Shown here piece by piece: positions 2,084 through 64,000 of a DNA stretch of 64,000 nt. Below the pieces are notes generated by a model that saw only the letters and a program-made list of their open reading frames with translations, was not told where the DNA came from and did not search any database. Made by a program: the position numbers and the translations under genes. This DNA is from a virus (taxonomy: Duplodnaviria > Caudoviricetes): IMG/VR virus record IMGVR_UViG_3300020187_001966. One strand, given 5' to 3'. Every line of letters starts with the position of its first letter. Within the stretch, counting starts at the first letter, position 1.

Positions 2084-2097
2084 TAAACGAGGAAAAT

Positions 2098-9685: not shown

Positions 9686-9714
9686 AATAGTTTCCCTCTC
9701 ACTACAAATATTTA

Positions 9715-12590: not shown

Positions 12591-13505
12591 ATGAAAGAAT
12601 TATGGGTAGAAAAGTATCGTCCCAAGACTTTGTCTGAATATGTATTCAAGAATGATGGTCAAAAGAATCTTATTAATGGTTGGGTAACTGACAAAAGTAT
12701 TCCACATTTAATGTTTGCTGGAAGTGCTGGTACAGGTAAAACTACACTAGCAAAAGTCCTTATTAATGAACTAGGTGTACAACCAGCAGATGTATTGTAT
12801 ATCAACGCTAGTCGTGATAACGGTATTGAATATGTACGCAACAAGATTACTAACTTTGGTGATACAATGCCTTGGGGAGACTTTAAGGTTGTACTACTAG
12901 ACGAGGCTGATTACTTGTCTCCAGAAGCACAAGCGGCGTTACGTGGTGTAATGGAACAAAACCATCAGAGTGTACGTTTTATACTTACATGTAATTATGA
13001 TAATAAAATTATTCCAGCACTTAAAAGTCGTTGTCAAGTATTTCAGATCCAGAAACAAGACGAGACAGAGTTTTTTAATCGCATGGTAACCATACTTGAT
13101 GCTGAAGGTGTTACATATGATCCTTATATGTTGGGATCGTTTGTTGTAGCTACACAGCCAGACATGCGTAAAACTATCAATAACCTACAATCAAATGTTA
13201 TGGATGGTGTACTAACACAGCCTGAAGAAGGTGGTGACGACAGTGCTTGGTTAATTAAAATGGTAGACTTGTTTAAGAGTGGCGATATACGCAGTGCCCG
13301 TAAATTAATTATTGCTAATGCTAGACCAACTGACTACGAAGGCATCTTTAGAAAGCTATATGAGAATATAGACTGGTTTGGTGACACTCCAGATAAACAA
13401 GATGAAGCTGTTATTGTTATTCGTAATGGACTAGTTAAACATATGAGTGTAGCAGATGTTGAAATTAATCTGAGTGCTACATTAATTGAACTGCAAATGA
13501 TATGA
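12591..13505 (+). CDS. Clamp loader small subunit (RFC/gp44-like AAA+)
   Basis: WVEKYRP, GSAGTGKTT, LDEAD, SRC motifs. Confidence 0.93.
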   Translation: MKELWVEKYRPKTLSEYVFKNDGQKNLINGWVTDKSIPHLMFAGSAGTGKTTLAKVLINELGVQPADVLYINASRDNGIEYVRNKITNFGDTMPWGDFKVVLLDEADYLSPEAQAALRGVMEQNHQSVRFILTCNYDNKIIPALKSRCQVFQIQKQDETEFFNRMVTILDAEGVTYDPYMLGSFVVATQPDMRKTINNLQSNVMDGVLTQPEEGGDDSAWLIKMVDLFKSGDIRSARKLIIANARPTDYEGIFRKLYENIDWFGDTPDKQDEAVIVIRNGLVKHMSVADVEINLSATLIELQMI

Positions 13506-14044
13506 ATAAAGTAATCTTTGTTGCCCTAGCTGAAGAATTTCCTCGCAAAATGGCTCCCAAAGGTTTTAACGTTGTGTATACTGGTATCGGTAAAGTTAAC
13601 GCTACGCTAGCAGTAACACAATACTTGACTGCTAATCCACATGTTACGGCTGTTTATAATTATGGAACAGCAGGTGCTAGTGATGATAGTGTAGCAGGCG
13701 AGCTACTAGGAGTATGTAGTTTAATAGAACGAGATATGGATATCACGGCGCTTGGACTTCCGTTATATGTAACTGAAAAAGATCAAGAACAACATTTTTA
13801 CACTAGTAATCGTCAAACAAGTATTATATGTGGTACTGGTGATAGCTTTGCTAGACCAAATTTACCATATCATATTGTAGACATGGAAGCATATGCCATT
13901 GGCAGAGTGTGTGAACACTTTGGTATTCCAGAGTTTTATTGTTTTAAATATATCAGCGATACAAATAATGACTTAGATCCAGGTAAAGCCTGGAAGCAAA
14001 ATGTATCTAAAGGTGCCAAAAAATTTAGAAAAATCTTCGATTAA
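13502..14044 (+). CDS. MTA/SAH nucleosidase-like (PNP/UDP family)
   Basis: TGIGKVNA, NYGTAG, GTGDSF, VDMEAYA, KYISD. Confidence 0.85.
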   Translation: MNKVIFVALAEEFPRKMAPKGFNVVYTGIGKVNATLAVTQYLTANPHVTAVYNYGTAGASDDSVAGELLGVCSLIERDMDITALGLPLYVTEKDQEQHFYTSNRQTSIICGTGDSFARPNLPYHIVDMEAYAIGRVCEHFGIPEFYCFKYISDTNNDLDPGKAWKQNVSKGAKKFRKIFD

Positions 14045-20523: not shown

Positions 20524-20804
20524 TTGATGCAGCAGCAGTTGGACGTTACATGAGCGATTTGTCTTATAGAACAACAGAAAATCTTGAGCTAGCAAATATG
20601 CTAAGCCGTATATCAGATGAACTAGAAACATTTGGTACTACTGTCTTTGCTAAACGTTGGAACGATTTTACTCGTATTGAAAAGCAACTTATTATTCAAT
20701 GTAAGAAAACAATGGAAAATGAACAGGAGAAATGGAATGATATGGGACAAACTGGCCCTGTGCCAGAAACAGATAGTGGACGTCCTCGATGCACACTGCC
20801 ATGA
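20520..20804 (+). CDS. Hypothetical protein
   Basis: ATGA overlap. Confidence 0.6.
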   Translation: MIDAAAVGRYMSDLSYRTTENLELANMLSRISDELETFGTTVFAKRWNDFTRIEKQLIIQCKKTMENEQEKWNDMGQTGPVPETDSGRPRCTLP

Positions 20805-21420
20805 AGATAATGAACCAGGGCTAGACTATTTTAATAGAGACGGCTGGGTAAACCGTGTATGGGCTAACGATAATATTCGTAGAGCCCATATTGACGTTGT
20901 AGATGCTAGAGAGAGTCGAGGACTTTGGATGATGCACGTATGTATATTTCCAGTCCTAAACAACGATGCTCCTATCTATGGCTTTGATGTTATTGCTGGT
21001 AAACGTAAGATAACTGGAGCGTTCCATGATTTCTCTCCTAGTAGTAATCGAGAGCATAATATGATACAAGGGTATTTTGACAGTGTTGATCACTTTGTAC
21101 CCAAAAAGCAACGTGAACTGCCTGAGTGGGCTCGTAATATCTTTACAAGTAAAATGCTTGCCGCTGGTAACGTTACTGATGAAGCTGAAGTAGATGAAAT
21201 TATTCGTATTGCTACAGATAATTTAACAGCATATTTAAGCGAGGTTGGCGAATATACAGCAGGCGAACGTGACCCAGCGGTAATTAAGGCACAAAACTAT
21301 TATTGTGATAATCAGAAGCTAAATCCACACACTGCTAATGTAATGAAGTCACTTGGATTGCCAGAAGAAGATGTAGAACTTTTTTGTAATAATATGCTTT
21401 TTCCTAAAATTAGCACTTGA
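20737..21420 (+). CDS. Ferredoxin-dependent bilin reductase (PcyA/PcyX-like)
   Basis: RRAHIDVVD, MMHVCIFP, PIYGFDVIAG..ITGAFHDFS, PEWARNIFT, QKLNPHT; AGGAG SD before ATG 20737. Confidence 0.75.
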   Translation: MIWDKLALCQKQIVDVLDAHCHEDNEPGLDYFNRDGWVNRVWANDNIRRAHIDVVDARESRGLWMMHVCIFPVLNNDAPIYGFDVIAGKRKITGAFHDFSPSSNREHNMIQGYFDSVDHFVPKKQRELPEWARNIFTSKMLAAGNVTDEAEVDEIIRIATDNLTAYLSEVGEYTAGERDPAVIKAQNYYCDNQKLNPHTANVMKSLGLPEEDVELFCNNMLFPKIST

Positions 21421-21477: not shown

Positions 21478-22053
21478 ATGAATAAGAATATAGTACTAAC
21501 AGATATCGATGGTGTAATGCTTGATTGGGAGGCTGCGTTTCATGATTGGATGGAAAGCAAAGGCTTCCAACGTAATAGTATTGCTACGTATGACATGCAT
21601 GTTGTATATGGGCAAAAGCGTAACCATATCAAAGCATTGATCTCAGAGTTTAACAATAGTGCTTGGATGTGTTGCTTAAAGCCATTACGTGATGTACAAT
21701 ATGGTGTTGAGCAACTTGTTAAAGCAGGTTATCGTTTTGGAGCCATTACTAGTTTGAGCTTAGATCCTTATGCTAAGGAACTTCGTACACAGAACTTGGT
21801 TAACTTGTTTGGTGATGTATTCGACTTTGTTACATGTCTAGATACTGGAGCAGATAAAGACGAAGCTCTACTACCTTATAAAGATAGTGGACTGTTTTGG
21901 ATTGAAGACAAGCCTGAGAATGCCAAATTAGGTGCAGACCTTGGCTTAAAGAGTTTGTTGATACGACACGAACACAATGCTTGGTTCGATTATGACGGTG
22001 TTAAGAAAGTAGACACATGGGCTCAGGTGTATAATACTATTGTTAAATCTTAA
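21478..22053 (+). CDS. HAD-family 5'(3')-deoxyribonucleotidase-like phosphatase
   Basis: TDIDGVMLDW, ITS, WIEDK. Confidence 0.75.
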   Translation: MNKNIVLTDIDGVMLDWEAAFHDWMESKGFQRNSIATYDMHVVYGQKRNHIKALISEFNNSAWMCCLKPLRDVQYGVEQLVKAGYRFGAITSLSLDPYAKELRTQNLVNLFGDVFDFVTCLDTGADKDEALLPYKDSGLFWIEDKPENAKLGADLGLKSLLIRHEHNAWFDYDGVKKVDTWAQVYNTIVKS

Positions 22054-22767
22054 TTATTCGCCATAAATGTTTAGTACATCTACAACAGCAGGATGTCTTT
22101 CAACATCTTGTTTTGTAAAATGTACGCATTTGATTGTATTGTGTTTGTCGGTTAGTTTGGTTGTAAAGTCTTTTAGACCATTATTATCATATCCTCTATC
22201 ATGTTGTGCTAAGTCTCCTGTAACAACGATTTTAGAACCAGTACCAATACGTGTTAGTAACATTTTCATTTGTTCTGGTGTAGCATTTTGCATTTCGTCT
22301 GCTACAATCCAGCACTGTTTGAATGTTCTACCACGCATATAAGCTAGTGGGGCGATCTCGATCTCTTTGTTCTCGATCATCTTTTCCACTTGCTTTGGAT
22401 CCCAATGTTCTTCTAATACGTCGAATATTGGTCGTGTCCAGGGTGCCATCTTATCTTTAAGACTGCCGGGTAGGAACCCGTGTTGTTCGTCAACGCTTAC
22501 AGCAGGACGTGTGATTACTATTTTACTAATCTCACCCGACTCAAACTTCTGAATGCCCATTTGGACAGCCAGCATGGTTTTACCTGTTCCAGCAGGACCA
22601 GTTGCAAATGCTATTGGTGTTTGGGTGTCGTCTAATATCGCAATGTAATCTTCCTGATGTACATTACGTGGTAAAATAGTTATCTTCTTTTTGCGATATG
22701 TCTGTAGTTCTACAACCATATTGTTAAAATTTGCCTTGCTATTTTGTTTTCTCGCTCTTCTTGACAT
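22054..22767 (-). CDS. phoH: PhoH-like ATPase
   Basis: GPAGTGKT, GFLPG, APLAYMRGRTF, DEMQN, GDLAQHD; GGAG SD favours ATG 22767. Confidence 0.95.
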   Translation of the reverse strand: MSRRARKQNSKANFNNMVVELQTYRKKKITILPRNVHQEDYIAILDDTQTPIAFATGPAGTGKTMLAVQMGIQKFESGEISKIVITRPAVSVDEQHGFLPGSLKDKMAPWTRPIFDVLEEHWDPKQVEKMIENKEIEIAPLAYMRGRTFKQCWIVADEMQNATPEQMKMLLTRIGTGSKIVVTGDLAQHDRGYDNNGLKDFTTKLTDKHNTIKCVHFTKQDVERHPAVVDVLNIYGE

Positions 22768-22843
22768 GTAGTGCTCCATTGGTTAAAGCTGAGCCCAATG
22801 TGTCCACAAGAGTATTTATTAAAGGAGCATAAATAATACTAAG

Positions 22844-24357: not shown

Positions 24358-24667
24358 GATAAGCGCAAAACCAATCCAACGACCTGAGCTAACATTGCCA
24401 GCAGTTGATGAACTCAATTTAAAAGAAGTCAACTGGGTTGTTATTAACGAAGATAATTTGGATTCAGTAATAGCTACACTAGCACAGAGCGGAAAGCCAT
24501 TTGCTATCTATGGACTTACTGGTGATGGCTATGCTAATCTTGGATTAAACTTTAGTGACATTCGTGCGCTAGTACAACAACAGCAAGCAATCATTGCGGC
24601 ATACGAAGGCTATTACAAAGAATCAGATGCGGCAATAGCGGAACATAATCAAACAGTAGATGACTAA
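24272..24667 (+). CDS. Putative o-spanin lipoprotein
   Basis: Signal with lipobox LTAC; overlaps the preceding gene's 3' end in another frame. Confidence 0.55.
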   Translation: MKSVLTKSALGFGLVILLTACSQPQQTIEISAKPIQRPELTLPAVDELNLKEVNWVVINEDNLDSVIATLAQSGKPFAIYGLTGDGYANLGLNFSDIRALVQQQQAIIAAYEGYYKESDAAIAEHNQTVDD

Positions 24668-25424
24668 TCCTTATAGTGTCTTGGGTGTCAGCCAAACTGC
24701 GTCCGAAGATGAAATCAAACAAGCATATCGTAAATTAGCTAAACAACATCACCCTGACCGTGGCGGCGATGAAGAAAAGTTTAAGACTATTAACGAGGCT
24801 TACGATAATATCAAAAATCCCCCACAACAAGATCGATCTCAAGGGTTTCATAACCAAAATGATATGCGTGGATTTGAGGATCTATTTAAACAACACTTTA
24901 ACTTTACACAGCGACAACCACGTAATCAAGACATACATATTACATACCATGTAACACTAGAAGAACTAATCAGCAATACTCCAAAAGATATTGAAGTAAA
25001 ACACAACAATGAAGTTCGCAACTTAACTATAACTATACCTGCTGGTATATATGATGGTGTTGAAGTAAAGTATACTGGATTTGGACAAATATCACAACCA
25101 GGTATTCCAGGAAATCTAATTGTACGATATCGTTTAAAAAGACATCCAATATTTGTCGTAGAAGAGTTTAATTTAACAAAACAGTTAAATATTAGTATAA
25201 GAGAAGCGATGTTAGGAACAGAAAAGATTATTACAACACTTGATAACAGAAGTATAAAACTAAAGATTAACCCAGGTACACAATCTAAAACACGATTACG
25301 AATACCAGAGTGTGGACTGCCACGTCGTGGAAATTCCAATGGAAATTTGTATGTAGAAATAATGGTAGATATTCCAAAACTAACTGAACAAGACTTAAAT
25401 AAATTGCTTAAAGATGTAATCTAG
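24660..25424 (+). CDS. dnaJ: DnaJ-class chaperone lacking the Zn finger (CbpA-like)
   Basis: J domain with HPD; C-terminal GLP..GNLYV. Confidence 0.9.
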   Translation: MTNPYSVLGVSQTASEDEIKQAYRKLAKQHHPDRGGDEEKFKTINEAYDNIKNPPQQDRSQGFHNQNDMRGFEDLFKQHFNFTQRQPRNQDIHITYHVTLEELISNTPKDIEVKHNNEVRNLTITIPAGIYDGVEVKYTGFGQISQPGIPGNLIVRYRLKRHPIFVVEEFNLTKQLNISIREAMLGTEKIITTLDNRSIKLKINPGTQSKTRLRIPECGLPRRGNSNGNLYVEIMVDIPKLTEQDLNKLLKDVI

Positions 25425-53997: not shown

Positions 53998-54696
53998 GTG
54001 CTAGACTTAAAAGTTATTGAAGTCCAACACTATACAGATAAACTTTTTAGAATTAGAACAGAGCGACCTCGCAGTTATAGATTTACTGCGGGGGAGTTCG
54101 TTATGATTGGTTTAGAGGATGCTCCAAGTAGAGCGTATAGTATTACCAGTGGTCCATATGACGACTACATAGAATTTTACAGTATTAAAGTACAAGACGG
54201 ACCGCTTACTAGTAAACTACAACACATTGTAGTAGGCGATACTATTCTTGTAGGTGAGAAGCCAACAGGTACACTTATACTTGCTAACTTAGAACTAGGC
54301 GGACATCTAGTAATGATGGCAAGTGGTACTGGTATTGCTCCGTTTATTAGTTTACTACGTGAACCAGAAACATATGATCTATTTGAGAACATTACAGTAA
54401 CATGGACTACTAGGCTACATGCTGAACAGGACTGTTACCGAGACTTCTTGAATGAGATGCCCATTGAATACATCAGCACAGTTACACAAGAGCCTGCTGA
54501 ACTACAAGGACGTATTCAAGTGTTCATGGCAGACGGTACTGTAAAGATTGACAACCCCGCAGAACAGCGTATAATGTTATGTGGAAGTGTAGCATTTAAC
54601 AATGATTTAAAAGAACACTTTAACAGCCTCGGATTTAACGAAGGCAACAAACGTACACAAGGAACGTTTGTACAAGAAAGGGCATTTGTCGGCTAA
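53998..54696 (+). CDS. fpr: Ferredoxin-NADP(+) reductase
   Basis: RAYSI, YSIKVQDGPLTSKL, GTGIAPF, MLCGS, ERAF. Confidence 0.92.
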   Translation: MLDLKVIEVQHYTDKLFRIRTERPRSYRFTAGEFVMIGLEDAPSRAYSITSGPYDDYIEFYSIKVQDGPLTSKLQHIVVGDTILVGEKPTGTLILANLELGGHLVMMASGTGIAPFISLLREPETYDLFENITVTWTTRLHAEQDCYRDFLNEMPIEYISTVTQEPAELQGRIQVFMADGTVKIDNPAEQRIMLCGSVAFNNDLKEHFNSLGFNEGNKRTQGTFVQERAFVG

Positions 54697-57380
54697 TGTA
54701 TGTAGACGCTTACTTCGATCAAAACAAAGATATTATCCACGTTACTGAACGTGATGAAAAAGGGCGGCGGGTATTCCGTGAGTATCCTGCTAGCTATGGC
54801 TTTTATTACAAGGATCAGCGTGGAAAGTACGACAGTATCTTTGGCGATAAACTATCACGTTATGCTACAACTAATGGCAGAGCGTTTAAAAAAGAAAAGA
54901 AGATGTATGGCGGACAAAAACTTTTTGAAAGTGATGTTAACCGCACGTTTAAGTGTTTAGCAGACAACTACTTGGGTAAAGATACTCCTAACTTAAACTT
55001 AGCCTTTTTTGATATTGAGGTTGACTTTGATAAAGACGTAGGATTTGCTCCGCCTGAAGATCCGTTTAACGCTATTACAGCAATCGCAGTTCATCTTAGT
55101 TGGCTTAAAACTACAGTATGTTTAGTGTGTAAACCAGACACACTTAGCCGTGAAGATGCAGCAGAGATATGTAGTCGCTTTCCAGACACTATGTTAATGG
55201 ATACAGAGGAAGAACTACTAAAAACTTTCCTTGAATTAATTGATGATGCGGATGTAATGAGTGGATGGAACAGCGAAGGCTTCGACATTCCATACACAGT
55301 AAACCGTATTTCTAGAACAATTGGTAAAGAGTATACTAAAAAGTTTTGCTTGTGGGATCAATATCCTAAACGCAGAGAGTTTGAGCGTTATGGAAAGTCA
55401 CAAGAGACGTTTGATACTATTGGACGTTTGCACTTAGACTATTTGCAACTGTATCAAAAATACACATATCACGAAATGCACAGCTACAGTTTGGATGCTA
55501 TTGCAGAGTATGAACTAGGCGAAAAGAAAGTTGAATACAAAGGCACACTTGACCAGTTATACAACAACGACTTCTATACGTTTATTGACTACAACAGACA
55601 AGACGTTGAGCTACTAGTTAAACTAGATGCCAAGCTACAGTTTATTGACTTAGCAAATGTTATTGCGCACGATAATACAGTTCTTATTCAGACAACAATG
55701 GGTGCTGTTGCGGTTACTGACCAAGCTATTATTAATGAAGCACATCATCGTGGACTAATTGTTCCTGACAAAGTACGTGATAAAGTACAAAAGCATTATC
55801 CACAATCAACACAAGCCGCAGGTGCGTATGTTGCTACTCCTGTACGTGGTAGGCACGAGTGGATTGGCAGTATGGACTTAAACAGTCTGTATCCTAGTAT
55901 CCTACGTAGCCTTAACTTGAGTACAGAAACTATTGTAGGGCAGGTTAGACACACATTAACTGTGCCACTACTACAGGAATATAAATGGGAAGCCGCAAGA
56001 GCGTGGGAGGGCAAGTTTGCTTGTCCAGAGTATGAGCTTGTAATGGCAAAGGATACTGAAACGCAACTGTGGATTGACTTTGAAAACGGCGAAGAGCTAA
56101 TGGCAACTGGTGCTGAAATATATAGCATTGTCTTTGAAAGCGATCAGCCTTGGGTTATTAGTAGTAATGCTACTATTATTAGACAAGACAAAAAAGGTAT
56201 TATTCCTGGATTGCTAGAGCGTTGGTATGCTGAACGTAAAGTTATGCAGAAAGAAGCTAGAGCTGTACAAGGTAAAGATGATGCCAAGTTTGGATACTGG
56301 GACAAGCGACAACTAGTTAAAAAGATTAACTTGAACAGTTTGTATGGTGCGTTACTTAATCAAGGATCACGTTTTAATGATCCACGCATGGGACAATCAA
56401 CAACATTAACAGGACGTACTATTGCTAGACATATGGGTGCTAGTGTTAATGAACTGTTTACTGGAGAATACAATCACGTAGGCGATACAATTGTGTATGG
56501 CGACACGGATAGTATCTACTTTAGTGCGTACCCTATCTTTAAAGACAAGATTGAAAGCGGAGAGTTTGAGTGGAATAAAGACAAGGTTACTGAACTTTAT
56601 GACACTGTATGCGATCAAGCAAACACAACGTTTCCTGGATATATGGCACAAGCACATAATGTACTTGACCAAAAGCAAGGTGAGATTATTGCCGCCGCTC
56701 GTGAAATGGTTGCCTTGTCTGGTATCTTTATTAAAAAGAAGCGTTATGCTATCCTAGTATATGATAACGAAGGCTATAGAGAAGACAAAGACGACAAGCC
56801 AGGTAAGATTAAAGCAATGGGCTTGGACTTAAAGCGTAGTGACACACCAGCATTTATGCAAGACTTTCTCAGTGAACTACTGCTTAAAACGCTAACAGGT
56901 ACAACTGATGATGATTTGATTGCTCGCATTATTGAGTTCCGTCAAGAGTTTAGACAAAAAGATCCGTGGGAGATTGGCACACCAAAGCGTGTTAACAAGC
57001 TAACACATTATACAGGGTTAGAATGGGATAAGAAAGGCGTGTACACTGGTAAAGCAAACATGCCTGGACACGTAAGAGCCGCAATCAACTACAATAGACT
57101 CAAGGGTATTAACAACGATAAATACAGTCCAGACATTGTTGATGGTATGAAAACTATTGTCTGTAAACTGAAACCGAATCCAATGGGATTCACTAGCATA
57201 GGATATCCTACAGATTCAATAATCCCTCCAGACTGGTTCAAAGAACTACCGTTTGATGTAGATCTTATGGAGGAAACAATCATTACTAAAAAGATTGATA
57301 ACTTACTTGGTGTACTACCAATTGACTTATCAAAAGCAGAGGACAAGACTACATTTGAGAGTCTGTTTGATTTTGGATGA
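54696..57380 (+). CDS. Family B DNA polymerase with 3'-5' exonuclease
   Basis: FDIE, GFDIPY, DLNSLYPS, KINLNSLYG, YGDTDS, KKRY. Confidence 0.97.
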   Translation: MYVDAYFDQNKDIIHVTERDEKGRRVFREYPASYGFYYKDQRGKYDSIFGDKLSRYATTNGRAFKKEKKMYGGQKLFESDVNRTFKCLADNYLGKDTPNLNLAFFDIEVDFDKDVGFAPPEDPFNAITAIAVHLSWLKTTVCLVCKPDTLSREDAAEICSRFPDTMLMDTEEELLKTFLELIDDADVMSGWNSEGFDIPYTVNRISRTIGKEYTKKFCLWDQYPKRREFERYGKSQETFDTIGRLHLDYLQLYQKYTYHEMHSYSLDAIAEYELGEKKVEYKGTLDQLYNNDFYTFIDYNRQDVELLVKLDAKLQFIDLANVIAHDNTVLIQTTMGAVAVTDQAIINEAHHRGLIVPDKVRDKVQKHYPQSTQAAGAYVATPVRGRHEWIGSMDLNSLYPSILRSLNLSTETIVGQVRHTLTVPLLQEYKWEAARAWEGKFACPEYELVMAKDTETQLWIDFENGEELMATGAEIYSIVFESDQPWVISSNATIIRQDKKGIIPGLLERWYAERKVMQKEARAVQGKDDAKFGYWDKRQLVKKINLNSLYGALLNQGSRFNDPRMGQSTTLTGRTIARHMGASVNELFTGEYNHVGDTIVYGDTDSIYFSAYPIFKDKIESGEFEWNKDKVTELYDTVCDQANTTFPGYMAQAHNVLDQKQGEIIAAAREMVALSGIFIKKKRYAILVYDNEGYREDKDDKPGKIKAMGLDLKRSDTPAFMQDFLSELLLKTLTGTTDDDLIARIIEFRQEFRQKDPWEIGTPKRVNKLTHYTGLEWDKKGVYTGKANMPGHVRAAINYNRLKGINNDKYSPDIVDGMKTIVCKLKPNPMGFTSIGYPTDSIIPPDWFKELPFDVDLMEETIITKKIDNLLGVLPIDLSKAEDKTTFESLFDFG

Positions 57381-57619
57381 AAACAAGTTTAGATTTACAT
57401 GGAAAACATATACATGAAGCGTGGAAAAGTGTTGACAGATTCATAGGTGAGTGTTATTATAGTAATATTAAACGTTGTGAAATCATATGTGGCCAAGGCT
57501 TAATTCGTAATGAAATAGAAACTTGGTTAAATCTAAATATACATGTGCGAGAATATAGATTTAATGTCCGCACACAAGGCAGTTATAACGTAATACTAAA
57601 GAAAAGGAAAACAGTATGA
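57377..57619 (+). CDS. Stand-alone Smr-domain protein
   Basis: LDLHG, IICGQG. Confidence 0.75.
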   Translation: MKTSLDLHGKHIHEAWKSVDRFIGECYYSNIKRCEIICGQGLIRNEIETWLNLNIHVREYRFNVRTQGSYNVILKKRKTV

Positions 57620-58335
57620 GAGACTATCTTCTCGACATCGTAAAGCATACCCGTAATGTGGGTAACATTGACGCAGTAAAGGTTACTAACGGAAGTGTTA
57701 TTGAAGCTAAAGATGACGACAACAAAGTAATTGTAAAGGCAACTTACAAAACACCACGCAGCGAATTGGCTGGGGTAATTGGATTGCCAAACTTGGATAA
57801 ACTAAACGTTATCCTTAACATTTCTGAATATACTGAGAACGCAAATATCAGTGTTGAAATGCGTGAACGTAATGGTGAAGAAGTACCATTTACTATGAAG
57901 TTTGTAAACGCAGGTGGTGATTTTAAAAATGACTTCCGCTTTATGAGCAAAGAACTTATTACACAGCGTATTCCAGAAGTACGTTTTAAAGGTGCTAATT
58001 GGGATGTAGAAGTTGCTCCACATAGTGCTAGTGTAGCACGATTTAAGATGCAAGCACAAGCAAACAGTGAAGAGAATGTCTTCATTGCGAAAACAGATGG
58101 TGATTCACTAAAGTTTTATTTTGGTGATGACAGTGGACACACTGGTAACTTTACATTTGAAGCTAGTGTATCTGGTGAGCTTAAACAAAGCTGGAAATAT
58201 CCAGTTGCTGAAGTACAAAGTGTACTAAATCTTAATGGTGATATTACTATGCGATTTAGTGATGCTGGTGCGTTAAAGATTGATGTAGACAACGGCATGG
58301 CTGTGTACGAATACATCTTCCCGGCGCAAAGCTAA
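57616..58335 (+). CDS. Probable sliding clamp (gp45-like)
   Basis: Size, position after PolB, clamp loader elsewhere in window; no strong motif. Confidence 0.55.
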   Translation: MRDYLLDIVKHTRNVGNIDAVKVTNGSVIEAKDDDNKVIVKATYKTPRSELAGVIGLPNLDKLNVILNISEYTENANISVEMRERNGEEVPFTMKFVNAGGDFKNDFRFMSKELITQRIPEVRFKGANWDVEVAPHSASVARFKMQAQANSEENVFIAKTDGDSLKFYFGDDSGHTGNFTFEASVSGELKQSWKYPVAEVQSVLNLNGDITMRFSDAGALKIDVDNGMAVYEYIFPAQS

Positions 58336-58781
58336 TGCGAGTTGGGTTTACGTGTAGTGTATTTGATTTGCTTCATGCTGGTCATATTGCTATGTTACGT
58401 GAAGCTAAAGAGCATTGTGAATATCTAATAGTTGGGTTACAAACTGACCCAACTATTGATAGACCGGACGAAAAGAATCGTCCAGTACAAAGTTTAGTTG
58501 AAAGACATTTACAACTAAGCGCAGTCAAGTATGTAGATGAAATTATCACATATCAGACTGAACAAGATTTGATTGATATTCTAAATATGTATAATATAAA
58601 TGTACGCATGTTAGGTGATGAATATCGAGAAAAGGATTTCACTGGCAAGGAAACTTGTCGCAAACGAGGTATTGAACTTCACTTCAACAGAAGAGACCAT
58701 AGGTTTAGTACAAGTGATTTAAGGGAAAGGGTTGAAAATGCCCCCAAACATCGAACAACGGTTAAAAAGTTTAGAAAGTAA
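58335..58781 (+). CDS. Cytidylyltransferase (TagD-like)
   Basis: FDLLHAGH, LIVGLQTD, RDHRFSTS. Confidence 0.88.
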   Translation: MRVGFTCSVFDLLHAGHIAMLREAKEHCEYLIVGLQTDPTIDRPDEKNRPVQSLVERHLQLSAVKYVDEIITYQTEQDLIDILNMYNINVRMLGDEYREKDFTGKETCRKRGIELHFNRRDHRFSTSDLRERVENAPKHRTTVKKFRK

Positions 58782-58926
58782 GCATAAAGCTCTTGACAAA
58801 CAGATAGAACAGTTGTATAAACATACTAGTGCTGAACTTAGTATTAAAAAACTTAAGAAAGAAAAACTGCTCCTAAAACAGGAGATAGTAAAACTAACTA
58901 ACCAATTAGGAGAACATAATGGTTAA
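58738..58926 (+). CDS. Small coiled-coil protein (DUF465/YdcH-like)
   Basis: RLKSLESKHKALDKQI..LKKEKLLLKQEI. Confidence 0.65.
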   Translation: MPPNIEQRLKSLESKHKALDKQIEQLYKHTSAELSIKKLKKEKLLLKQEIVKLTNQLGEHNG

Positions 58927-59095
58927 GAAGATCCGTGTAATTGAAGACTCAACAGTAGCACCTGATGAAATATCTGACGCTGCGTTCCGAACACAAGTAA
59001 TGGAACTTGCGAAAGCTGTAGATTGGAAACTTTGGGAGTTGTTGCAAACTATTCAACGCCTTGAGAAGAAAATCGACGTTTCAGATAATGACTAA
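58919..59095 (+). CDS. Hypothetical protein (58 aa, not in track)
   Basis: AGGAG SD; AVDWKLWE. Confidence 0.6.
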   Translation: MVKKIRVIEDSTVAPDEISDAAFRTQVMELAKAVDWKLWELLQTIQRLEKKIDVSDND

Positions 59096-59528
59096 CCGTG
59101 AAGGTTATTATGATTATATGCTTAGGCGTATGAGAGAAGAGGATACTAAGATGAAGAAGTCAAGCACAAATATTTGGGTAACATTCCGCAAGGAAGGTTT
59201 ACACAAGTACCCAGCAGCACTAGATGACCCTAAGTTGGCAACTGGTGATGAACAAGATGTAAGTTTCCTAGGATACATACATCGACATATTTTCCACTTT
59301 AAGGTAGAACTTGAAGTATTCCATGACGATCGAGACGTTGAATTTATCCAATTCAAGAGATGGTTGGAAAGCCTCTACGCAGACGGAACTCTGCAACTCG
59401 ATTTTAAATCCTGTGAGATGATTTGTGATGATCTTGCAGATACAATTAACACAAAATATCCCAACCGCAAAATGACAATCACTATTAGTGAGGATGGGGA
59501 AAATGGAGCAACGTGTAGCTATGCATAG
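59088..59528 (+). CDS. Atypical QueD/PTPS-like T-fold protein (start 59088 or 59151)
   Basis: HRHIFHF His cluster, DRDVEF, KSCEMI; sits in the tgt-folE cluster. Confidence 0.55.
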   Translation: MTNREGYYDYMLRRMREEDTKMKKSSTNIWVTFRKEGLHKYPAALDDPKLATGDEQDVSFLGYIHRHIFHFKVELEVFHDDRDVEFIQFKRWLESLYADGTLQLDFKSCEMICDDLADTINTKYPNRKMTITISEDGENGATCSYA

Positions 59529-59841
59529 TTTAGGTACTAATATCCGTGAACTTCGCCAAGGGCGAGTAAGCGTTAACGACATCAAATGGGATCTTATTAA
59601 GATTATCGAACCATATGATGGTATTCTTGCAACCAATGACGGAAGTGAACGAACTGTTCGCCGTCTATTCACTACATACCTAAGTGATCTTAGATACGTG
59701 GGTCTAATTAATGACTTTAACATCTTTAGTAATATCCGTGATAACGCTATTACATATGATGTAAGCGTAAAAATGTCACAAGATCGCAGTGATAAGAAAC
59801 TAAAGATTCATGTAGGTGTGTATCAGAAACGAGCGGCATAG
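59503..59841 (+). CDS. Hypothetical protein
   Basis: In operon; start uncertain. Confidence 0.55.
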   Translation: MEQRVAMHSLGTNIRELRQGRVSVNDIKWDLIKIIEPYDGILATNDGSERTVRRLFTTYLSDLRYVGLINDFNIFSNIRDNAITYDVSVKMSQDRSDKKLKIHVGVYQKRAA

Positions 59842-59842
59842 T

Positions 59843-61357
59843 ATGACAGCAACTCGTGTAAACTTAACAGAACGTAACAAAGACTACGCAGTATTTTTGC
59901 CTAGTATTAGTACGTTCTATAATAACTTTATCGCAAAGCAACGTGCTTCTGGCAATCATATTTTGCCAGAACGTATGCCAGCAGGTTTTGAAACTGGCAT
60001 GGAAGGCATGAACTTTCTTAATGAGAAGGATGCTTACTATAGTTATAAGTGGGGGTTATACTCCGCAGGTCATGCTCAACTTAATCTAGATAAAGCTAAT
60101 GAATCAGACGCAATGGTACAAGGCCGTGATCGTGACAAAACGTTTATGCTTTGTGACAGTGGCGGCTTTCAGATTATTAAAGGTGTTATCCAGTGTGATT
60201 GGGATAACTTTAAAACTGATGACAGTTTACGTCAGAAGATCTTAAACTGGTTGGAACACACAGGTGATTACAGTATGATCCTGGATATTCCAACACTAGC
60301 GGCGGATCCTACATTTACAGAACGAACAGGTATTTCATCATTCAACGAATGTTTGGACTACACTGACTTTAATGTAAACTGGTTTAAAAAGAACCGCAAA
60401 TACCAAACAAAGTATCTTAATGTTATGCAAGGGCGCAACTGGGCTGAAGCAGAACACTGGTATGAGAAAATGAAACATCATGATCTCGAAGGCTTTGCGT
60501 TTGGTGGTAGTGCTAAGAACGACATCAACATTGTACTACGTACACTTATTAAGATGCGTGATGATCAGCAACTAGAGCGTGGCAAACGTGATGTGCTACA
60601 CTACTTGGGCATTGGTAGACTAGAATGGGCAGCGGCTTATACAGCAATCCAACGTAGTTTACGTGAGCATGTTAACGAAGATATTAATGTTATGTTTGAC
60701 TGTGCGAGTCCTTTCTTGGCAACAGCAAATGGTACAATGTATACACAGCACGTTCATAAGTCAGATCGCTTTGGTTATGTTATGGATAAAGCAATGGACA
60801 GTAAAGCACTAAGTGGAAGTAAACAAGCATTTCCGTTTGGTAGTCCAATTGGCGAACGTCTTAACTTGGGTGACATTTGTCACTACTCGCCTGGTATGCT
60901 TAATAAAGTAGGCAAAGAAGGCAAAACAAGTTGGGATAGTTTTAGTTATATGCTACTAATGTCACACAATGTATACAGTCATATTGAAAGTGTACAACGT
61001 GCTAATGCGTTAACTGACATGGTAAACGCAACAGTAAGTACAGACTACAGAAAATGGCGTAAACTTAAACCTAACAGTAAAGATGAAGTGTTTAGTCCAT
61101 ATGTTCCACGTAACATTGTGTACATGACACAGTTTATTGATCAACTGTTCCGCAGTGAGAAACCTATGACAATGCTAGACGAAGCGGCAGGTATGTTAGC
61201 TAACTTTAGTGGACAAAAACTACAAACATCAAGTGCTGGTAGTTTTAGTAACTTGTTTGAAGTTGAAGGTGCTGTTTCAGAAGAATCCAATGAGATGTCA
61301 GCTGAACAAGAAGCTGACGCAATTGACTTTTTAGAATCAATGGAGAGTACTGTATGA
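59843..61357 (+). CDS. TGT/DpdA-like 7-deazaguanine transglycosylase
   Basis: DSGGFQI, ILDIP, GFAFGG, HYLGIG, FDCASP, SHN line up with the TGT barrel motifs. Confidence 0.75.
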   Translation: MTATRVNLTERNKDYAVFLPSISTFYNNFIAKQRASGNHILPERMPAGFETGMEGMNFLNEKDAYYSYKWGLYSAGHAQLNLDKANESDAMVQGRDRDKTFMLCDSGGFQIIKGVIQCDWDNFKTDDSLRQKILNWLEHTGDYSMILDIPTLAADPTFTERTGISSFNECLDYTDFNVNWFKKNRKYQTKYLNVMQGRNWAEAEHWYEKMKHHDLEGFAFGGSAKNDINIVLRTLIKMRDDQQLERGKRDVLHYLGIGRLEWAAAYTAIQRSLREHVNEDINVMFDCASPFLATANGTMYTQHVHKSDRFGYVMDKAMDSKALSGSKQAFPFGSPIGERLNLGDICHYSPGMLNKVGKEGKTSWDSFSYMLLMSHNVYSHIESVQRANALTDMVNATVSTDYRKWRKLKPNSKDEVFSPYVPRNIVYMTQFIDQLFRSEKPMTMLDEAAGMLANFSGQKLQTSSAGSFSNLFEVEGAVSEESNEMSAEQEADAIDFLESMESTV

Positions 61358-62109
61358 AAATTGTAGTTGTATCTGGTGGATTTGATCCATTACATAGTGG
61401 ACATATTGCGTACTTTAAGTCAGCTAGAAAACTTGGAGACAAACTTGTAGTTGCTGTGAATTCAGATGATTGGCTTACCCGTAAAAAGGGTAGGCCATTT
61501 ATGCCTTTTCATGAACGTTGTAATATTATTGAAGAGCTAGGGTGTGTTGATCAAGTTATTGGATTTAATGACGAAGACGACACAGCATGTAACGCAATAT
61601 TTCAAATGTTATCTACTAAAACAAGAAGTGATACTGTAATCTTTGCCAATGGTGGAGATCGCACTTCAGATAATATTCCAGAAATGATTTATGACGAAGT
61701 ACAATTTGAATTTGGAGTTGGTGGAGAAGACAAAAAGAATAGTAGTAGTTGGATACTTAAAGAGTGGAGTCAGCCTACAACACAACGTGCTTGGGGTAGT
61801 TACACAGTGTTACATAATGGTCCAGGTTGGGCAGTTAAAGAGCTAGCATTTGGTACTGAAACTCCACTAAGTGATCAACGACACTTTATTCGTAGTGAAC
61901 ACTGGCATGTAGTTGAAGGCGATATTCGTATGGATTTAGAGTTTGACAATGGCGACAAATCAAGTATACTATATACATCAGGACAAAGTATCGATATTCC
62001 TGTACACACTTGGCACAAAGCAACAAACGTCGGCACCACAACAGCAAAAGTAATTGAAGTGTGGATGGGCGATGAACTTAGTGAAGATGACATTGAAAGA
62101 AGAGATTAA
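61354..62109 (+). CDS. Cytidylyltransferase fused to MPI-type cupin
   Basis: GGFDPLHSGH, ANGGDR, KNSSS; RAWGSY, SDQRH..RSEHW. Confidence 0.85.
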   Translation: MKIVVVSGGFDPLHSGHIAYFKSARKLGDKLVVAVNSDDWLTRKKGRPFMPFHERCNIIEELGCVDQVIGFNDEDDTACNAIFQMLSTKTRSDTVIFANGGDRTSDNIPEMIYDEVQFEFGVGGEDKKNSSSWILKEWSQPTTQRAWGSYTVLHNGPGWAVKELAFGTETPLSDQRHFIRSEHWHVVEGDIRMDLEFDNGDKSSILYTSGQSIDIPVHTWHKATNVGTTTAKVIEVWMGDELSEDDIERRD

Positions 62110-63170
62110 TGAAAACAATTTATATTATACCGATAGAACCGATTGACCAACGTTATTCTAAGCAATGGTATGATAACATTCCACTTATACTACAAAAAGA
62201 GATAGCTGAACGTAATTTAGATTATCATGTAGTAACAATTGATGGCGAGGACTTTAAACCTGATGTGAGAACAGAAGGTGCTTTCCTTGACTTTGGTGCT
62301 ACTAATGTATATAAGTCAACACAGACTACAGCGGTAAGTAAACTGTTTAGTAACGGTAAAGTTAAGGCAGGCGATAAGTTTCTGATAACTGATGCTTGGA
62401 ACTTTATCATTACACCTATCAAATACATGAGTGACTTACTGGACATTCCAGTAGAGATACATAGTATTTGGCATGCTGGAGCATATGATCCAAGTGACAT
62501 ACTTGGGTATAAGATGCAACCAGACTGGCCCAATCATGTTGAGAAGAGCTGGTATCATAGTAGTGATTATAATTACTATGCTACAAACTTTCACAAGGAC
62601 ATGTTTTTACGTAACTTAAATATTCCACAAGGTAATTATAATAAAGCTATACGCAGTGGGCAACCACACGAGCTTATTGTTGATAACTTAACACAATATC
62701 AAACTACACCTAAAACAAATACAGTTATGTGGCCACATCGCTATAATGATGACAAGCAACCAGAAATTGCTGAAGACTTGTCTAACGACTTTAGAATGGT
62801 CATTACACAAAAAATGAACCTTGACAAAGCTGAATATTATGCTAAGATGGGAGGGTGTAAGGCAATTTTTAGTTGTGCGTTACATGAAAACCTAGGCATT
62901 AGTGTAATGGAAGCAGTACTAACAGGTGCTATTCCAATCGTGCCGGATCGCTGTAGTTACAGCGAAATGTATCTGCCAGAGTTTAAGTATCCAAGTGAAT
63001 GGACTAAAGACTATGTAGCATACGTGGAAAATAGACCACAGCTAACAGCCTTTATTCAAGAGAAACTAGACAACTTTGATCAGTATACAAACAAACTAGA
63101 AGAACAACGTAACATTCTTATTAAAGATTATCTAAATAGTAGTGTTATGATAGACAACATACTACAATAA
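62109..63170 (+). CDS. GT-B glycosyltransferase (GT4-like)
   Basis: WPHR..DKQP, HENLGISVMEA, PIVPDRCSY.E. Confidence 0.8.
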   Translation: MKTIYIIPIEPIDQRYSKQWYDNIPLILQKEIAERNLDYHVVTIDGEDFKPDVRTEGAFLDFGATNVYKSTQTTAVSKLFSNGKVKAGDKFLITDAWNFIITPIKYMSDLLDIPVEIHSIWHAGAYDPSDILGYKMQPDWPNHVEKSWYHSSDYNYYATNFHKDMFLRNLNIPQGNYNKAIRSGQPHELIVDNLTQYQTTPKTNTVMWPHRYNDDKQPEIAEDLSNDFRMVITQKMNLDKAEYYAKMGGCKAIFSCALHENLGISVMEAVLTGAIPIVPDRCSYSEMYLPEFKYPSEWTKDYVAYVENRPQLTAFIQEKLDNFDQYTNKLEEQRNILIKDYLNSSVMIDNILQ

Positions 63171-63189
63171 ACGAAAAGGAACATAGTAT

Positions 63190-63882
63190 ATGAACAAGAC
63201 TTCCGATTTAGTAATTAACAGACTAAAAAAAGACGACAAACGTTATTGGGCAGGCGATAACATTAGTGACTACATCAAAGACGGTGAAAAGGATCTATTG
63301 ATTGACGAAGCTGCTGTAGCGTTTGAAAGTGTATTAGATACACTTGTAATTGATCGTCATAATGATCCCAATTCAAAAGGTACAGCAAAGCGTTTAGCTA
63401 AAATGTATTATAATGAAATAATGGCGGGTCGTTACGAACCTATGCCACCAGCAACAGCCTTTCCAAACGATTCAGCGGATCGATATGAAGGAATGTTGGT
63501 AGTACGTAGTGAGCTTAAAAGTATGTGTTCACACCATCATCAGCCAGTGGCAGGTGTAGCGTACATAGGTATTATTGCTGCAGACACACTTATTGGTTTA
63601 AGCAAGTACACACGTATTGCTCAATGGTGTGCTAGACGTGGAACACTACAAGAAGAACTAGCTACTGATATTGCTAGGGAAATCATGTCAGCAACTGGTA
63701 GTACAGACGTTGGTGTCTATATCCAAGCAACACATGGTTGTTGTGAGAATAGAGGAATAGGCGCACACAGTAGTTTAACACAAACAACTGTACTTAAAGG
63801 TAGCTTCCATAATGACCAAGGAACTAAAAAAGAGTTCATGGACAATATTAAACTACAGCAATCATTTGCTCAAGGCAAATAA
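63190..63882 (+). CDS. folE: GTP cyclohydrolase I
   Basis: SMCSHHHQP, GLSKYTRI, QEEL, ATHGC...RG. Confidence 0.95.
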   Translation: MNKTSDLVINRLKKDDKRYWAGDNISDYIKDGEKDLLIDEAAVAFESVLDTLVIDRHNDPNSKGTAKRLAKMYYNEIMAGRYEPMPPATAFPNDSADRYEGMLVVRSELKSMCSHHHQPVAGVAYIGIIAADTLIGLSKYTRIAQWCARRGTLQEELATDIAREIMSATGSTDVGVYIQATHGCCENRGIGAHSSLTQTTVLKGSFHNDQGTKKEFMDNIKLQQSFAQGK

Positions 63883-64000
63883 TGAAAACTCCAAAATATA
63901 AAAACTTTGGGTCTGAATTGAGTATCCCTGTCAGTGGTTTATCTGACAGGGAGAATCACAAATCAGGATCTGGGGGTGCGCTAAATGCTGGTTATACACC
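63882..64000 (+). CDS. 5' part of a hypothetical gene (runs off window)
   Basis: TAATG overlap with folE; open to window end (..GSGGALNAGYT). Confidence 0.55.
   Translation, partial: MKTPKYKNFGSELSIPVSGLSDRENHKSGSGGALNAGYT

Follow-up and report, generated by a model that had tools for sequence, protein, structure and literature searches.

In Cellulophaga phage phiST, FolE, QueD, QueE, DpdL, and DpdA3 lead to 2'-deoxy-7-deazaguanosine (dDG) (Cui et al. 2023, PMC10516641). Reconstitution of the DpdL reaction has yet to be achieved, and a published attempt to obtain dDG with DpdL and DpdA of Acidovorax phage ACP17 in E. coli failed (PMC10516641). The DNA of Pseudomonas phage PA5oct (Arenbergviridae, Wroclawvirus) has been reported as G-modified, with G-containing restriction sites resisting cleavage (PMC12191111).

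Sugars are also attached to a 7-deazaguanine derivative by a GT4-fold enzyme in the case of QTMAN/GTDC1, the tRNA-queuosine mannosyltransferase. In phage DNA, sugar decoration is exemplified by the glucosyl-5hmC of T4. Phages are known to have pyrimidine glycosylation clusters that include sugar-activation genes of their own, as for the arabinosyl-5-hydroxycytosine of RB69, DLP3, and HY126 (PMC13326640). Here, we describe a gene cluster from an uncultivated marine jumbo phage, a distant relative of PA5oct, found in a window of 64,000 nucleotides, which is the whole stretch of DNA that was analyzed.

Gene content and organization of the cluster

At 58335-63882 we observe a single string of co-oriented, partly overlapping genes on the + strand (Table 1), comprising a cytidylyltransferase, a PTPS-like protein, a TGT-fold protein, a fusion of a cytidylyltransferase with a PMI-type cupin, a GT-B (GT4-like) glycosyltransferase (GT), and FolE, together with three small conserved ORFs. 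The preliminary description had read the six named genes as one coupled operon, and their positions and shared strand bear this out: neighboring genes overlap or touch (ATGA at 61354, TAATG at 62109 and 58335), and no terminator-like sites were found on the + strand within 58335-63882. The genes that it placed elsewhere in the window are likewise present, namely QueD, an NDP-sugar dehydrogenase (here truncated), and a HAD-type phosphatase of the NT5C nucleotidase kind. It had also stated that queE and queC lie outside the window, within which we found no radical-SAM or PP-loop ORF.

Table 1. Cluster genes and possibly associated genes of the window (near clade, relatives with a DpdA-like identity of at least 63%)
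Feature	Position	Strand	Evidence and remarks
QueD (6-carboxytetrahydropterin synthase type), unlinked pathway member	136-585	+	Pfam PTPS E 6e-14; TIGR03367 E 7e-9, below cut-off
PRPP synthetase, possible supplier to the cluster's purine phosphoribosyltransferase	2053-3042	+	Pfam Pribosyltran_N E 6e-51
Class I fructose-bisphosphate-aldolase-like, possibly sugar supply	4636-5442	+	NCBIfam PRK05377 E 1e-70, below cut-off
Short nucleotide-sugar dehydrogenase-like (251 aa, without C-terminal domain)	9768-10523	+	PF00984, PF03721; TIGR03026 E 4e-38, below cut-off
NT5C (HAD-type) nucleotidase	21478-22053		
Cytidylyltransferase-fold nucleotidyltransferase (148 aa), candidate NDP-sugar or NDP-polyol synthase	58335-58781	+	Pfam PF01467 (CTP_transf_like) E 3e-13; nearest NCBIfam RfaE domain II E 6e-23 and TagD E 6e-18, both below cut-off; phrog_7878
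Two small ORFs	58732-58926, 58919-59095	+	No family match; translations conserved at 38-94% identity in near-clade contigs
DpdL (T-fold, QueD-like; proposed 7-carboxy-7-deazaguanine decarboxylase)	59151-59528	+	Signature and homology
117-aa protein	59488-59841	+	Directly 3' of DpdL, near clade only, 45-95% identity; no family match
TGT-superfamily DpdA-like transglycosylase, long (about 500 aa) subfamily	59816-61357	+	Fold and invariant residues
Cytidylyltransferase-fold + type II mannose-6-phosphate-isomerase cupin fusion	61354-62109	+	PF01467 E 2e-15, PF01050 E 2e-20
GT-B fold, GT4-like glycosyltransferase	62109-63170	+	Predicted model; no Pfam match
GTP cyclohydrolase I (FolE)	63190-63882	+	Pfam PF01227 E 4e-38; NCBIfam FolE models E 1e-30 to 7e-38

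A QueC-less pathway with DpdL

FolE, QueD, QueE, DpdL, and a TGT-fold transglycosylase are common to phiST and the phage studied here, no QueC accompanies them, and both clusters lie beside replication genes. The protein first described as an atypical QueD is indeed QueD-like (PTPS), and signature and homology now identify it as DpdL: its LGYIHRHIF corresponds to the published DpdL signature LxxxHRHxF, also found in phiST, and it is 33% identical to phiST CGPG_00067 and 59% identical to ACP17 DpdL. The Cys required for PTPS/QueD chemistry is absent from it. The ORF opens at TTG 59061, with homologues beginning at the likely true start, ATG 59151; the 59061-59528 protein has no Pfam match and matches phrog_17812. 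DpdL is present in all 16 representative loci, and the separate QueD carries the motif CRFLHGY, in agreement with phiST and ACP17 QueD.

Given this signature, the pathway is of the QueC-less type (FolE, QueD, QueE, DpdL, DpdA). It had been suggested that queE and queC might follow just downstream. In near-identical relatives QueE does lie a few kilobases beyond the point where the window stops, and among five relatives with contigs of 159-270 kb QueE is present in all five and QueC in none. A pathway without QueC would be expected to yield 7-deazaguanine or a CDG-derived base as its core, rather than the preQ0, preQ1, G+, or ADG considered earlier. The locus departs from that of phiST in its transglycosylase (~500 aa), which shows no BLAST similarity to DpdA3, and in a GT4-like GT, nucleotidyltransferases, a cupin, a phosphoribosyltransferase (PRTase), and a HIT protein, all absent at the phiST locus.

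A divergent TGT-fold protein

By sequence alone, the DpdA-like protein (likely true start, ATG 59843) matches only TIGR00449 (E 5e-4). Its predicted model (pLDDT 83) gave only TGTs among the best 50 Foldseek matches listed against the PDB (best E 7.5e-9), and VIA-align Z scores ranged from 15.6 (DpdA, 7ui4) to 18.4 (ArcTGT) for ArcTGT, QTRT2, TGT, and DpdA, with other TIM barrels at 11.9 or below. The protein thus shares the TIM-barrel fold of tRNA TGTs and bacterial DpdA, the DNA preQ0 insertase. The DSGGFQ (D114), ILD (D157), GG (230-231), and FDC (D295-C296) motifs, already recognized in the preliminary description, are invariant among 29 relatives, and equivalents of Zymomonas mobilis TGT D102, D156, G229-G230, and D280 are invariant. 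In contrast to bacterial DpdA and TGTs, the protein carries N- and C-terminal extensions (about 100 aa extra) and, as also stated before, no CxCxxC zinc motif; the only invariant residues in the zinc region are C355, H384, H389, and D353. Because QueC is absent, a substrate other than preQ0 is expected.

The glycosyltransferase is consistently linked to deazaguanine genes

The GT model (pLDDT 90) finds its best PDB matches in BshA, LmbT, glycogen synthase, and MshA (E 1e-10 to 1e-8), and the HY126 glycosyltransferase (9ir0, E 5.5e-8) is also among its fold matches. Conserved residues include E260-x7-E268 (EX7E) and R211-x4-K216, the latter matching the donor-phosphate-binding pair of GT4 enzymes. 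The N-domain residues are invariant while the neighboring sugar genes vary. QTMAN shares 15% identity with the GT, the highest value among the Swiss-Prot matches listed, and as a match is no more distinctive than other GT4 enzymes; its target is the queuosine cyclopentenediol in tRNA, a group that the pathway of the window cannot make.

The main new result, obtained by comparing sequences, is the linkage of this GT across related contigs and cultured phages. Wherever a related viral contig continues far enough downstream, the DpdA-like gene is accompanied by the GT (54 of 54 contigs); nine more related contigs without GT are truncated and lie outside the 54. GT homologues also occur inside the DpdL-type clusters of five cultured phages (PA5oct, ACP17, Phosso, X1, and BCSR5), with partners from at least three different DpdA subfamilies. 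A separation of tgt and GT in relatives had been named as evidence against glycosylation, and what we observe is linkage in all 54 contigs and all five cultured lineages.

In PA5oct, the cluster (EST35_0316 to 0322, annotated as hypothetical) follows a DNA polymerase and a clamp-like protein and includes DpdA-like (EST35_0316), GT, and DpdL proteins with 36%, 39%, and 54% identity to those of the window; PRTase and QueE are also present, with gene order conserved, and a short SDR epimerase-like remnant stands in place of the cupin and both cytidylyltransferases. In the T4-like, 156-kb genome of ACP17, the order is QueD-FolE-x-DpdA-GT-DpdL-QueE, with the genes from DpdA to QueE overlapping or nearly abutting; its GT (32% identity) thus lies inside the deazaguanine genes, and its 424-aa DpdA belongs to a different subfamily (hhalign probability 77%, 24% identity). 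The clusters of X1 (GT, TGT, DpdL, QueE) and Phosso (DpdL, GT, FolE) differ again. Among 50,697 phage records, 22 match the GT, 28 match DpdL, and 17 match both; several DpdL phages have no GT, phiST being one of them. In addition, one GT-family member at 23% identity is surrounded by GlmS/deacetylase genes, none of its neighbors being annotated as a deazaguanine gene.

The sugar-nucleotide genes flanking GT differ by clade, being nucleotidyltransferases and a cupin in the window, an aldolase-like gene in L011 and L022, and a GalE-like epimerase in L024, L053, L057, and L065, of which PA5oct retains a remnant. The 58335-58781 gene occurs in the near clade; some distant clades have it as well, placed upstream of the cluster. 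At this locus the cytidylyltransferase-cupin fusion is seen only in the near clade, and its architecture is common in viruses, also outside such clusters. Genes located elsewhere in the window adjoin the cluster in relatives: the 4636-5442 product is 67% identical to that of the gene directly upstream of GT in L011 (also aldolase-like at the same position in L022), homologues of the 9768-10523 dehydrogenase adjoin the cluster in several relatives, and a PRPP synthetase homologue does so in L058 and L059. A xanthine/guanine-type PRTase, a HIT protein, and PRPP synthetase are cluster-linked across clades, PA5oct included.

Proposed pathway and alternatives

We propose, at about even confidence, that a QueC-less DpdL-type 7-deazaguanine DNA modification core has been extended here by a glycosylation branch that places a sugar on the deazapurine. 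FolE, QueD, and QueE would convert GTP to 7-carboxy-7-deazaguanine, DpdL would convert this to 7-deazaguanine (a role proposed in the literature), and the TGT-fold protein would exchange guanine in phage DNA for the deazapurine. The GT4-like enzyme would add a sugar to the deazapurine, which could still be a free base at that point or already be part of the DNA. The donor in this clade may be produced by the PMI-type cupin together with both cytidylyltransferase-fold enzymes, which suggests a manno-configured hexose or heptose nucleotide, and the PRTase encoded just downstream may recycle released guanine or activate the deazapurine. The linkage of GT to DpdA and DpdL, accompanied by sugar genes that vary with the clade, favors a link between a sugar decoration and the deazaguanine pathway. 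The earlier suggestion of an inserted base decorated with a sugar or polyol therefore gains genomic support for its sugar part, with a different core base expected from those listed at the time.

Like the systems of T4, RB69, DLP3, and HY126, the locus combines a phage GT-B enzyme with phage sugar-activation genes. In those systems, however, the sugar is attached to the hydroxyl of a pyrimidine that is synthesized as a nucleotide, whereas a purine analogue introduced by base exchange would be the acceptor here. It counts against our proposal that 7-deazaguanine has no hydroxyl for a glycosyltransferase; to our knowledge, DNA glycosylation is described only on hydroxylated pyrimidines, and we know of no precedent for GT4-type attack on C7, N2, or O6. 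The DpdL phages that lack GT, the distant GT-family member, and the occurrence of the cytidylyltransferase-cupin fusion outside such clusters count against it as well. No description of a glycosylated deazaguanine was found in the literature.

This lack of a hydroxyl would be accommodated if the DNA contained plain dDG as in phiST, with GT and the sugar genes serving a different base in DNA, a protein, or a glycan of the virion or host envelope, which we consider rather unlikely. dDG is the only proven product of a DpdL pathway, the cytidylyltransferase-cupin fusion is widespread in viruses, the GT fold matches are generic GT4 with no acceptor signal, and the distant GT-family member sits in an unrelated amino-sugar context. 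However, GT is universal in the marine clade, and in five cultured lineages, whose genome layouts and DpdA subfamilies differ, it overlaps or nearly abuts DpdA or DpdL, a pattern that is hard to obtain without shared function.

It is less probable still, and in our view unlikely, that the chemistry takes place on free bases or nucleotides, with the PRTase making a (glycosylated) deazapurine nucleotide that enters DNA at replication, or a metabolite resembling tubercidin or a pterin glycoside, in which case the TGT-fold protein would have a different role. In 7-deazapurine nucleoside antibiotic pathways a PRTase acts on CDG or preQ0, which agrees with the cluster linkage of PRTase, HIT protein, and PRPP synthetase, and tetrahydrobiopterin glucosyltransferases rank 45 and 50 among the GT fold matches listed. 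Yet the TGT-fold protein is never missing and keeps its catalytic residues, DpdL is without the PTPS/QueD Cys, QueE favors a deazapurine over a pterin, and the PRTase is equally explained by salvage of guanine from base exchange. Finally, it is very improbable that the target is phage or host tRNA with a sugar on a queuosine-like base, as with the eukaryotic mannosyl-queuosine enzyme, since although the closest solved folds are ArcTGT and tRNA TGTs and the Drosophila tRNA-queuosine mannosyltransferase ranks 8 among the Swiss-Prot fold matches listed for GT, that match is one of many to GT4 enzymes, DpdA scores nearly as high as the tRNA enzymes, the genes lie in a replication module, with those for DNA polymerase and a clamp-like protein as neighbors, the virion DNA of PA5oct carries modified G, and the phiST DpdL pathway replaces G in DNA.

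For the deazaguanine pathways of these phages, the recurring pairing with a GT points to a sugar-decorated purine, so far undescribed in DNA.

The deazaguanine gene run

The interval 58335-63882 is a single-direction gene run in which stops and starts overlap or abut (junctions TAATG at 58335 and 62109, ATGA at 61354), and no terminator-like site is seen on the + strand within it. Its genes are present as they were named in the preliminary description, and are listed in the table below. The run is preceded, in order, by genes for a DNA polymerase, an Smr-domain protein and a 239-aa protein, with a perfect sigma-70-type site 5' of the polymerase gene. The 239-aa protein, directly 3' of the polymerase and Smr genes, is a conserved neighbour of the DpdA-like gene in almost all relatives; its homologue in Sinorhizobium phage Phosso is annotated as a sliding clamp, and mass spectrometry of PA5oct virions has its homologue in that phage recorded as a "structural protein". 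Pfam and PHROG scans give no match for the 117-aa protein of the run, for an approximately 180-aa family shared with Acidovorax phage ACP17, or for the downstream 251-aa and 411-aa proteins, and a megablast search with the region likewise finds no match among 50,697 phage records. Elsewhere in the window we observe auxiliary genes typical of marine phages, encoding a ferredoxin-dependent bilin reductase, PhoH, a DnaJ-type chaperone and a class 3 lipase.

Features of the window and of related viral contigs
Feature	Sequence	Location	Strand	Remark
QueD (second PTPS-family gene)	window	136-585
Aldolase-like gene	window	4636-5442
Class 3 lipase	window	8927-9721	-
MTA/SAH-type nucleosidase	window	13502-14044
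Ferredoxin-dependent bilin reductase	window	20632-21420
PhoH	window	22054-22779	-
DnaJ-type chaperone	window	24660-25424
Sigma-70-type site	window	54548
DNA polymerase	window	54696-57380
239-aa protein	window	57616-58335
Cytidylyltransferase-fold protein	window	58335-58781	+
Two small ORFs	window	between the 58335-58781 gene and the PTPS-like gene	+
PTPS-like protein (DpdL)	window	59061-59528	+	homologues begin at ATG 59151
117-aa protein	window	between the PTPS-like gene and the 513-aa gene	+	function not assigned
513-aa TGT-fold protein	window	59816-61357	+	likely start ATG 59843
Cytidylyltransferase fused to type II mannose-6-phosphate-isomerase cupin	window	61354-62109	+
353-aa protein (GT-B fold)	window	62109-63170	+
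FolE	window	63190-63882	+	Pfam PF01227, 131 bits vs cut-off 27
Xanthine/guanine-type phosphoribosyltransferase	L003	13284-14208		just past the window end
Glycosyltransferase ORF	L006	12816-13961		about 30 aa longer N-terminally
Glycosyltransferase ORF	L015	12489-13643		about 30 aa longer N-terminally
Distant glycosyltransferase-family member and preceding genes	L077 (Xanthomonas phage PhiXhv-15)	4870-8104
~180-aa family	L034	11938-12483
~180-aa family	L053	11759-12301
~180-aa family	L066 (ACP17)	7326-7724		132 aa as annotated

A DpdL-type pathway

The PTPS-like protein carries the motif LGYIHRHIF, that is LxxxHRHxF, in which Leu takes the place of the catalytic Cys of QueD. This change from the QueD motif CxxxHGH defines DpdL, of which proteins of Cellulophaga phage phiST and ACP17 are named members (Cui et al., PMC10516641). 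The window protein shares 33% identity with phiST CGPG_00067 and 59% with ACP17 DpdL, the motifs aligning one by one, and on this comparison its assignment as a predicted DpdL holds. DpdL is the proposed 7-carboxy-7-deazaguanine (CDG) decarboxylase, an activity not reconstituted to date; its pathways comprise FolE, QueD, QueE and a DpdA, with no QueC, and in phiST all G is replaced by 2'-deoxy-7-deazaguanosine (dDG) (PMC10516641). ACP17 or phiST DpdL together with DpdA gave no dDG in Escherichia coli, and it was suggested that further enzymes may be required (Cui et al., PMC10516641).

FolE, QueD and the DpdA-like gene all lie within the window. QueD scores above the Pfam PTPS cut-off (E 6e-14) and below that of TIGR03367 (QueD); its motif is CRFLHGY vs the expected CxxxHGH, the same variant as in the QueDs of phiST and ACP17, with which it groups. 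No radical-SAM or PP-loop ORF is found in the window, and the state of QueE and QueC beyond its 64 kb is read from relatives: QueE lies 3' in the near-identical viral contig L003 and is present in all five of the long relatives' contigs (159-270 kb), none of which has a QueC above cut-off. The MTA/SAH-type nucleosidase could clear the 5'-deoxyadenosine made by QueE.

In L003, whose proteins are 82-99% identical to those of the window, the genes after FolE are, in order, a 98-aa ORF, a xanthine/guanine-type phosphoribosyltransferase, a HIT protein, three unassigned ORFs, a DNA methyltransferase, QueE, a second methyltransferase and MetK. The phosphoribosyltransferase is found in this position in many clades, including PA5oct (EST35_0321), with the HIT protein beside it in many marine clades. 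It may possibly act in guanine salvage after base exchange or in deazapurine nucleotide formation; together with the HIT protein and PRPP synthetase it may be part of chemistry at the nucleotide level, or the three may equally do no more than recycle guanine set free by base exchange.

A long DpdA-like subfamily

By sequence alone, the 513-aa protein gives a weak match to the general TGT model (TIGR00449, E 5e-4). A structural model built from 29 relatives (pLDDT 83) returns only TGT among the best 50 Foldseek PDB matches listed, the best at E 7.5e-9. With VIA-align, an aligner independent of Foldseek, Z reaches 18.4 for ArcTGT, 17.5 for QTRT2, 16.6 for bacterial TGT, 15.6 for DpdA (7ui4), which inserts preQ0 into DNA, and 13.9 for Cap10, and stays at or below 11.9 for unrelated TIM barrels. 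The predicted structure is that of a TGT-type (beta/alpha)8 barrel. The residues D114-S-G-G-F-Q119, D157, G230-G231 and D295-C296 are invariant or nearly so among the 29 relatives (40-91% identity) and match, by motif and TIGR00449 alignment, D102 (DSGGxQ), the base-binding D156 and GG, and the nucleophile D280 (FDC) of Zymomonas mobilis TGT. The lack of CxCxxC remarked on in the preliminary description is borne out: the zinc motif CxCxxC...H is absent from the window protein and from its relatives in PA5oct, Phosso and the marine contigs L034 and L057. An altered zinc site is possible, as only D353, C355, H384 and H389 are invariant in that region.

Membership in the DpdA3 subfamily, which includes proteins of Campylobacter phages, was considered and set aside, since blastp gives no alignment of the window protein to phiST DpdA3 (CGPG_00065) at E <= 10; the PA5oct homologue reaches just E 3.9, and phiST DpdA3 is a weak structural match to the model (BFVD, E 2.7e-3). 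The protein groups with its counterparts in PA5oct, Phosso and marine contigs in a separate long DpdA-like subfamily. A putative DpdA activity, exchanging guanine for a 7-deazaguanine base in DNA, is supported by context, namely the replication module and the DpdL pathway, and by the G-specific restriction resistance of PA5oct DNA.

The predicted glycosyltransferase

The model of the 353-aa protein (pLDDT 90.4) shows a GT-B fold with two Rossmann domains and matches BshA, LmbT, MshA, glycogen synthase and PimA-type mannosyltransferases (E 1e-10 to 1e-8, TM by query 0.6-0.66), its best matches being retaining GT4 enzymes. It keeps the EX7E motif (E260-x7-E268, with E268 nearly invariant) and a basic donor-diphosphate-binding pair, R211-x4-K216, invariant in 13 members down to 19% identity; in the N-domain, E10, R15, Y16, D95, D130 and E145 are invariant or nearly so over the same range. 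A Pfam scan of the protein finds no family at E <= 0.01, PF00534 (Glycos_transf_1) included; a precomputed PF00534 match exists for one 68%-identical homologue, and related Atlas clusters carry this family as well. Searching solved structures by sequence and by profile yielded no usable match for this protein or for the TGT-like protein, and a complex prediction for the two returned no verdict (score 0.00), which we count neither for nor against an interaction.

We do not infer the acceptor from the fold, because QTMAN (rank 8 among fold matches) and the tetrahydrobiopterin glucosyltransferases (BGluT; 5zes and 9v0l, placed only 45th and 50th in the list of GT4 matches) do no better than other GT4 enzymes. 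The fold matches also include 9ir0, the glycosyltransferase of a 5-hydroxycytosine cluster; phage clusters for 5-hydroxycytosine glycosylation bring their own sugar-activation enzymes together with the glycosyltransferase (PMC13326640).

Some close relatives have 0.6 to 4 kb inserted between the genes for the cupin and the glycosyltransferase, so the operon is fluid in what lies between its genes. A distant family member (23% identity) follows GlmS and an LmbE-type deacetylase in PhiXhv-15, with no deazaguanine genes annotated nearby, and may be part of some other glycosylation system of the 228-kb Xanthomonas phages.

Linkage across phage lineages

A search with the 513-aa protein recovers 63 viral contigs (38-94% identity), as well as PA5oct and its kin (36%) and Phosso (26%). 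In 54 of the 63 contigs a glycosyltransferase profile finds a same-strand homologue 0.7 to 5 kb 3' of the DpdA-like gene, and the other 9 stop short of the expected position. The glycosyltransferase is also found with DpdL in cultured phages whose gene orders differ (see below), and its DpdA-like partners belong to at least three subfamilies that are scarcely alignable with each other. Cultured phages thus carry the same module as the marine contigs.

Gene order of the module in cultured phages
Phage	Order
PA5oct	DpdA-like, glycosyltransferase, DpdL, x, SDR remnant, phosphoribosyltransferase, QueE
ACP17	QueD, FolE, x, DpdA, glycosyltransferase, DpdL, QueE (genes overlap or nearly abut)
Xanthomonas phage X1	FolE ... 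glycosyltransferase, TGT, DpdL, QueE
Burkholderia phage BCSR5	DpdL ... glycosyltransferase, DpdA-like, x, QueE ... FolE
Phosso	polymerase, clamp, x, DpdL, glycosyltransferase, x, FolE ... QueE

The glycosyltransferase has no homologue in phiST, the sole DpdL phage whose product (plain dDG) is chemically proven, or in Rhizobium phage RHph_I1_18; it thus behaves as an optional tailoring step on the DpdL pathway. That the phages carrying it would also make plain dDG, with the glycosyltransferase unrelated to the base, seems to us rather unlikely. Among the 50,697 phage records the glycosyltransferase matches 22 and DpdL 28, with both in 17, where independence would predict about 0.01.

In ACP17 and in distant marine clades, DpdA is adjoined by a gene of the approximately 180-aa family, which is not found in the window's clade and may be an additional pathway component that has gone unrecognised.

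Sugar supply and the nature of the base

The genes adjoining the glycosyltransferase vary from clade to clade. In the window's clade these are two nucleotidyltransferases and a cupin, and in two contigs of this clade (L011 and L022) the glycosyltransferase is immediately preceded by a class I aldolase-like gene, the L011 copy being 67% identical to that of the window. Four more distant clades carry a GalE-like epimerase directly 3' of it, of which PA5oct keeps a short remnant. In the contigs L051 and L058 a cytidylyltransferase and an NDP-sugar dehydrogenase-like gene adjoin the cluster, in L058 along with a PRPP synthetase; in the window the dehydrogenase-like gene and PRPP synthetase lie 50 kb away. 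The cytidylyltransferase-cupin fusion is common in viruses and means little by its presence alone; it is its position between DpdA and glycosyltransferase that counts. As the N-domain residues are constant while the sugar genes beside the glycosyltransferase vary, we infer a fixed acceptor and changing sugar donors. T-even phages swap the sugar donor on cytosine.

The preliminary description proposed a glycosylated deazapurine. Strong gene linkage in multiple lineages favors this proposal, which seems to us evenly poised. 7-Deazaguanine has no hydroxyl, and a C-C or N link to the sugar is for this reason possible: the sugar would have to be joined through C, N or O6, unless CDG or another intermediate is the acceptor. 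To our knowledge, the sugar modifications of DNA are all on pyrimidines, and the 7-deazaguanine bases described in DNA carry a small substituent or none. A more specific form of the proposal, which we advance tentatively and with somewhat less confidence, is that these phages make a sugar-decorated purine, the first of its kind in DNA: a 7-deazaguanine- or CDG-derived base, inserted by the new long DpdA subfamily, would receive a hexose or heptose from a dedicated GT4-type enzyme, possibly through a C-C or N link, with clades swapping the donor. A pterin glycoside as the product was given low weight, since the catalytic Cys is missing from DpdL and QueE is a constant partner of the linkage.

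A literature search found no report of glycosylated 7-deazaguanine in DNA and no identified nucleoside for PA5oct, MIJ3 or ACP17. The DNA of PA5oct is modified at G, resists G-specific restriction and is attacked by nucleases that sense modified G, its nucleoside not having been analysed (PMC12191111).

Occurrence and significance

Near-identical copies of the region are found in marine metagenomes of 13 studies (2014-2025), which indicates a phage lineage common and persistent in seawater. The stretch 57000-64000 also recurs almost unchanged in contigs of six RNA libraries. One contig of a metatranscriptome library equals 57970-62407 without a difference, DNA carry-over being possible, for which reason we do not claim transcription of the operon.

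The glycosyltransferase is fixed inside a DpdL-type pathway in six phage lineages, which predicts a new class of hypermodified purine. If true, this would account for the G modification of PA5oct-like jumbo phages, the targets of END nucleases, and for the missing dDG when ACP17 DpdL and DpdA act alone. In that case the modification would occur widely in the ocean and in the therapeutic candidate phage PA5oct, and, given the abundance of the family in marine metagenomes, would matter for escape from restriction, for bias in sequencing and for the use of PA5oct relatives in phage therapy.
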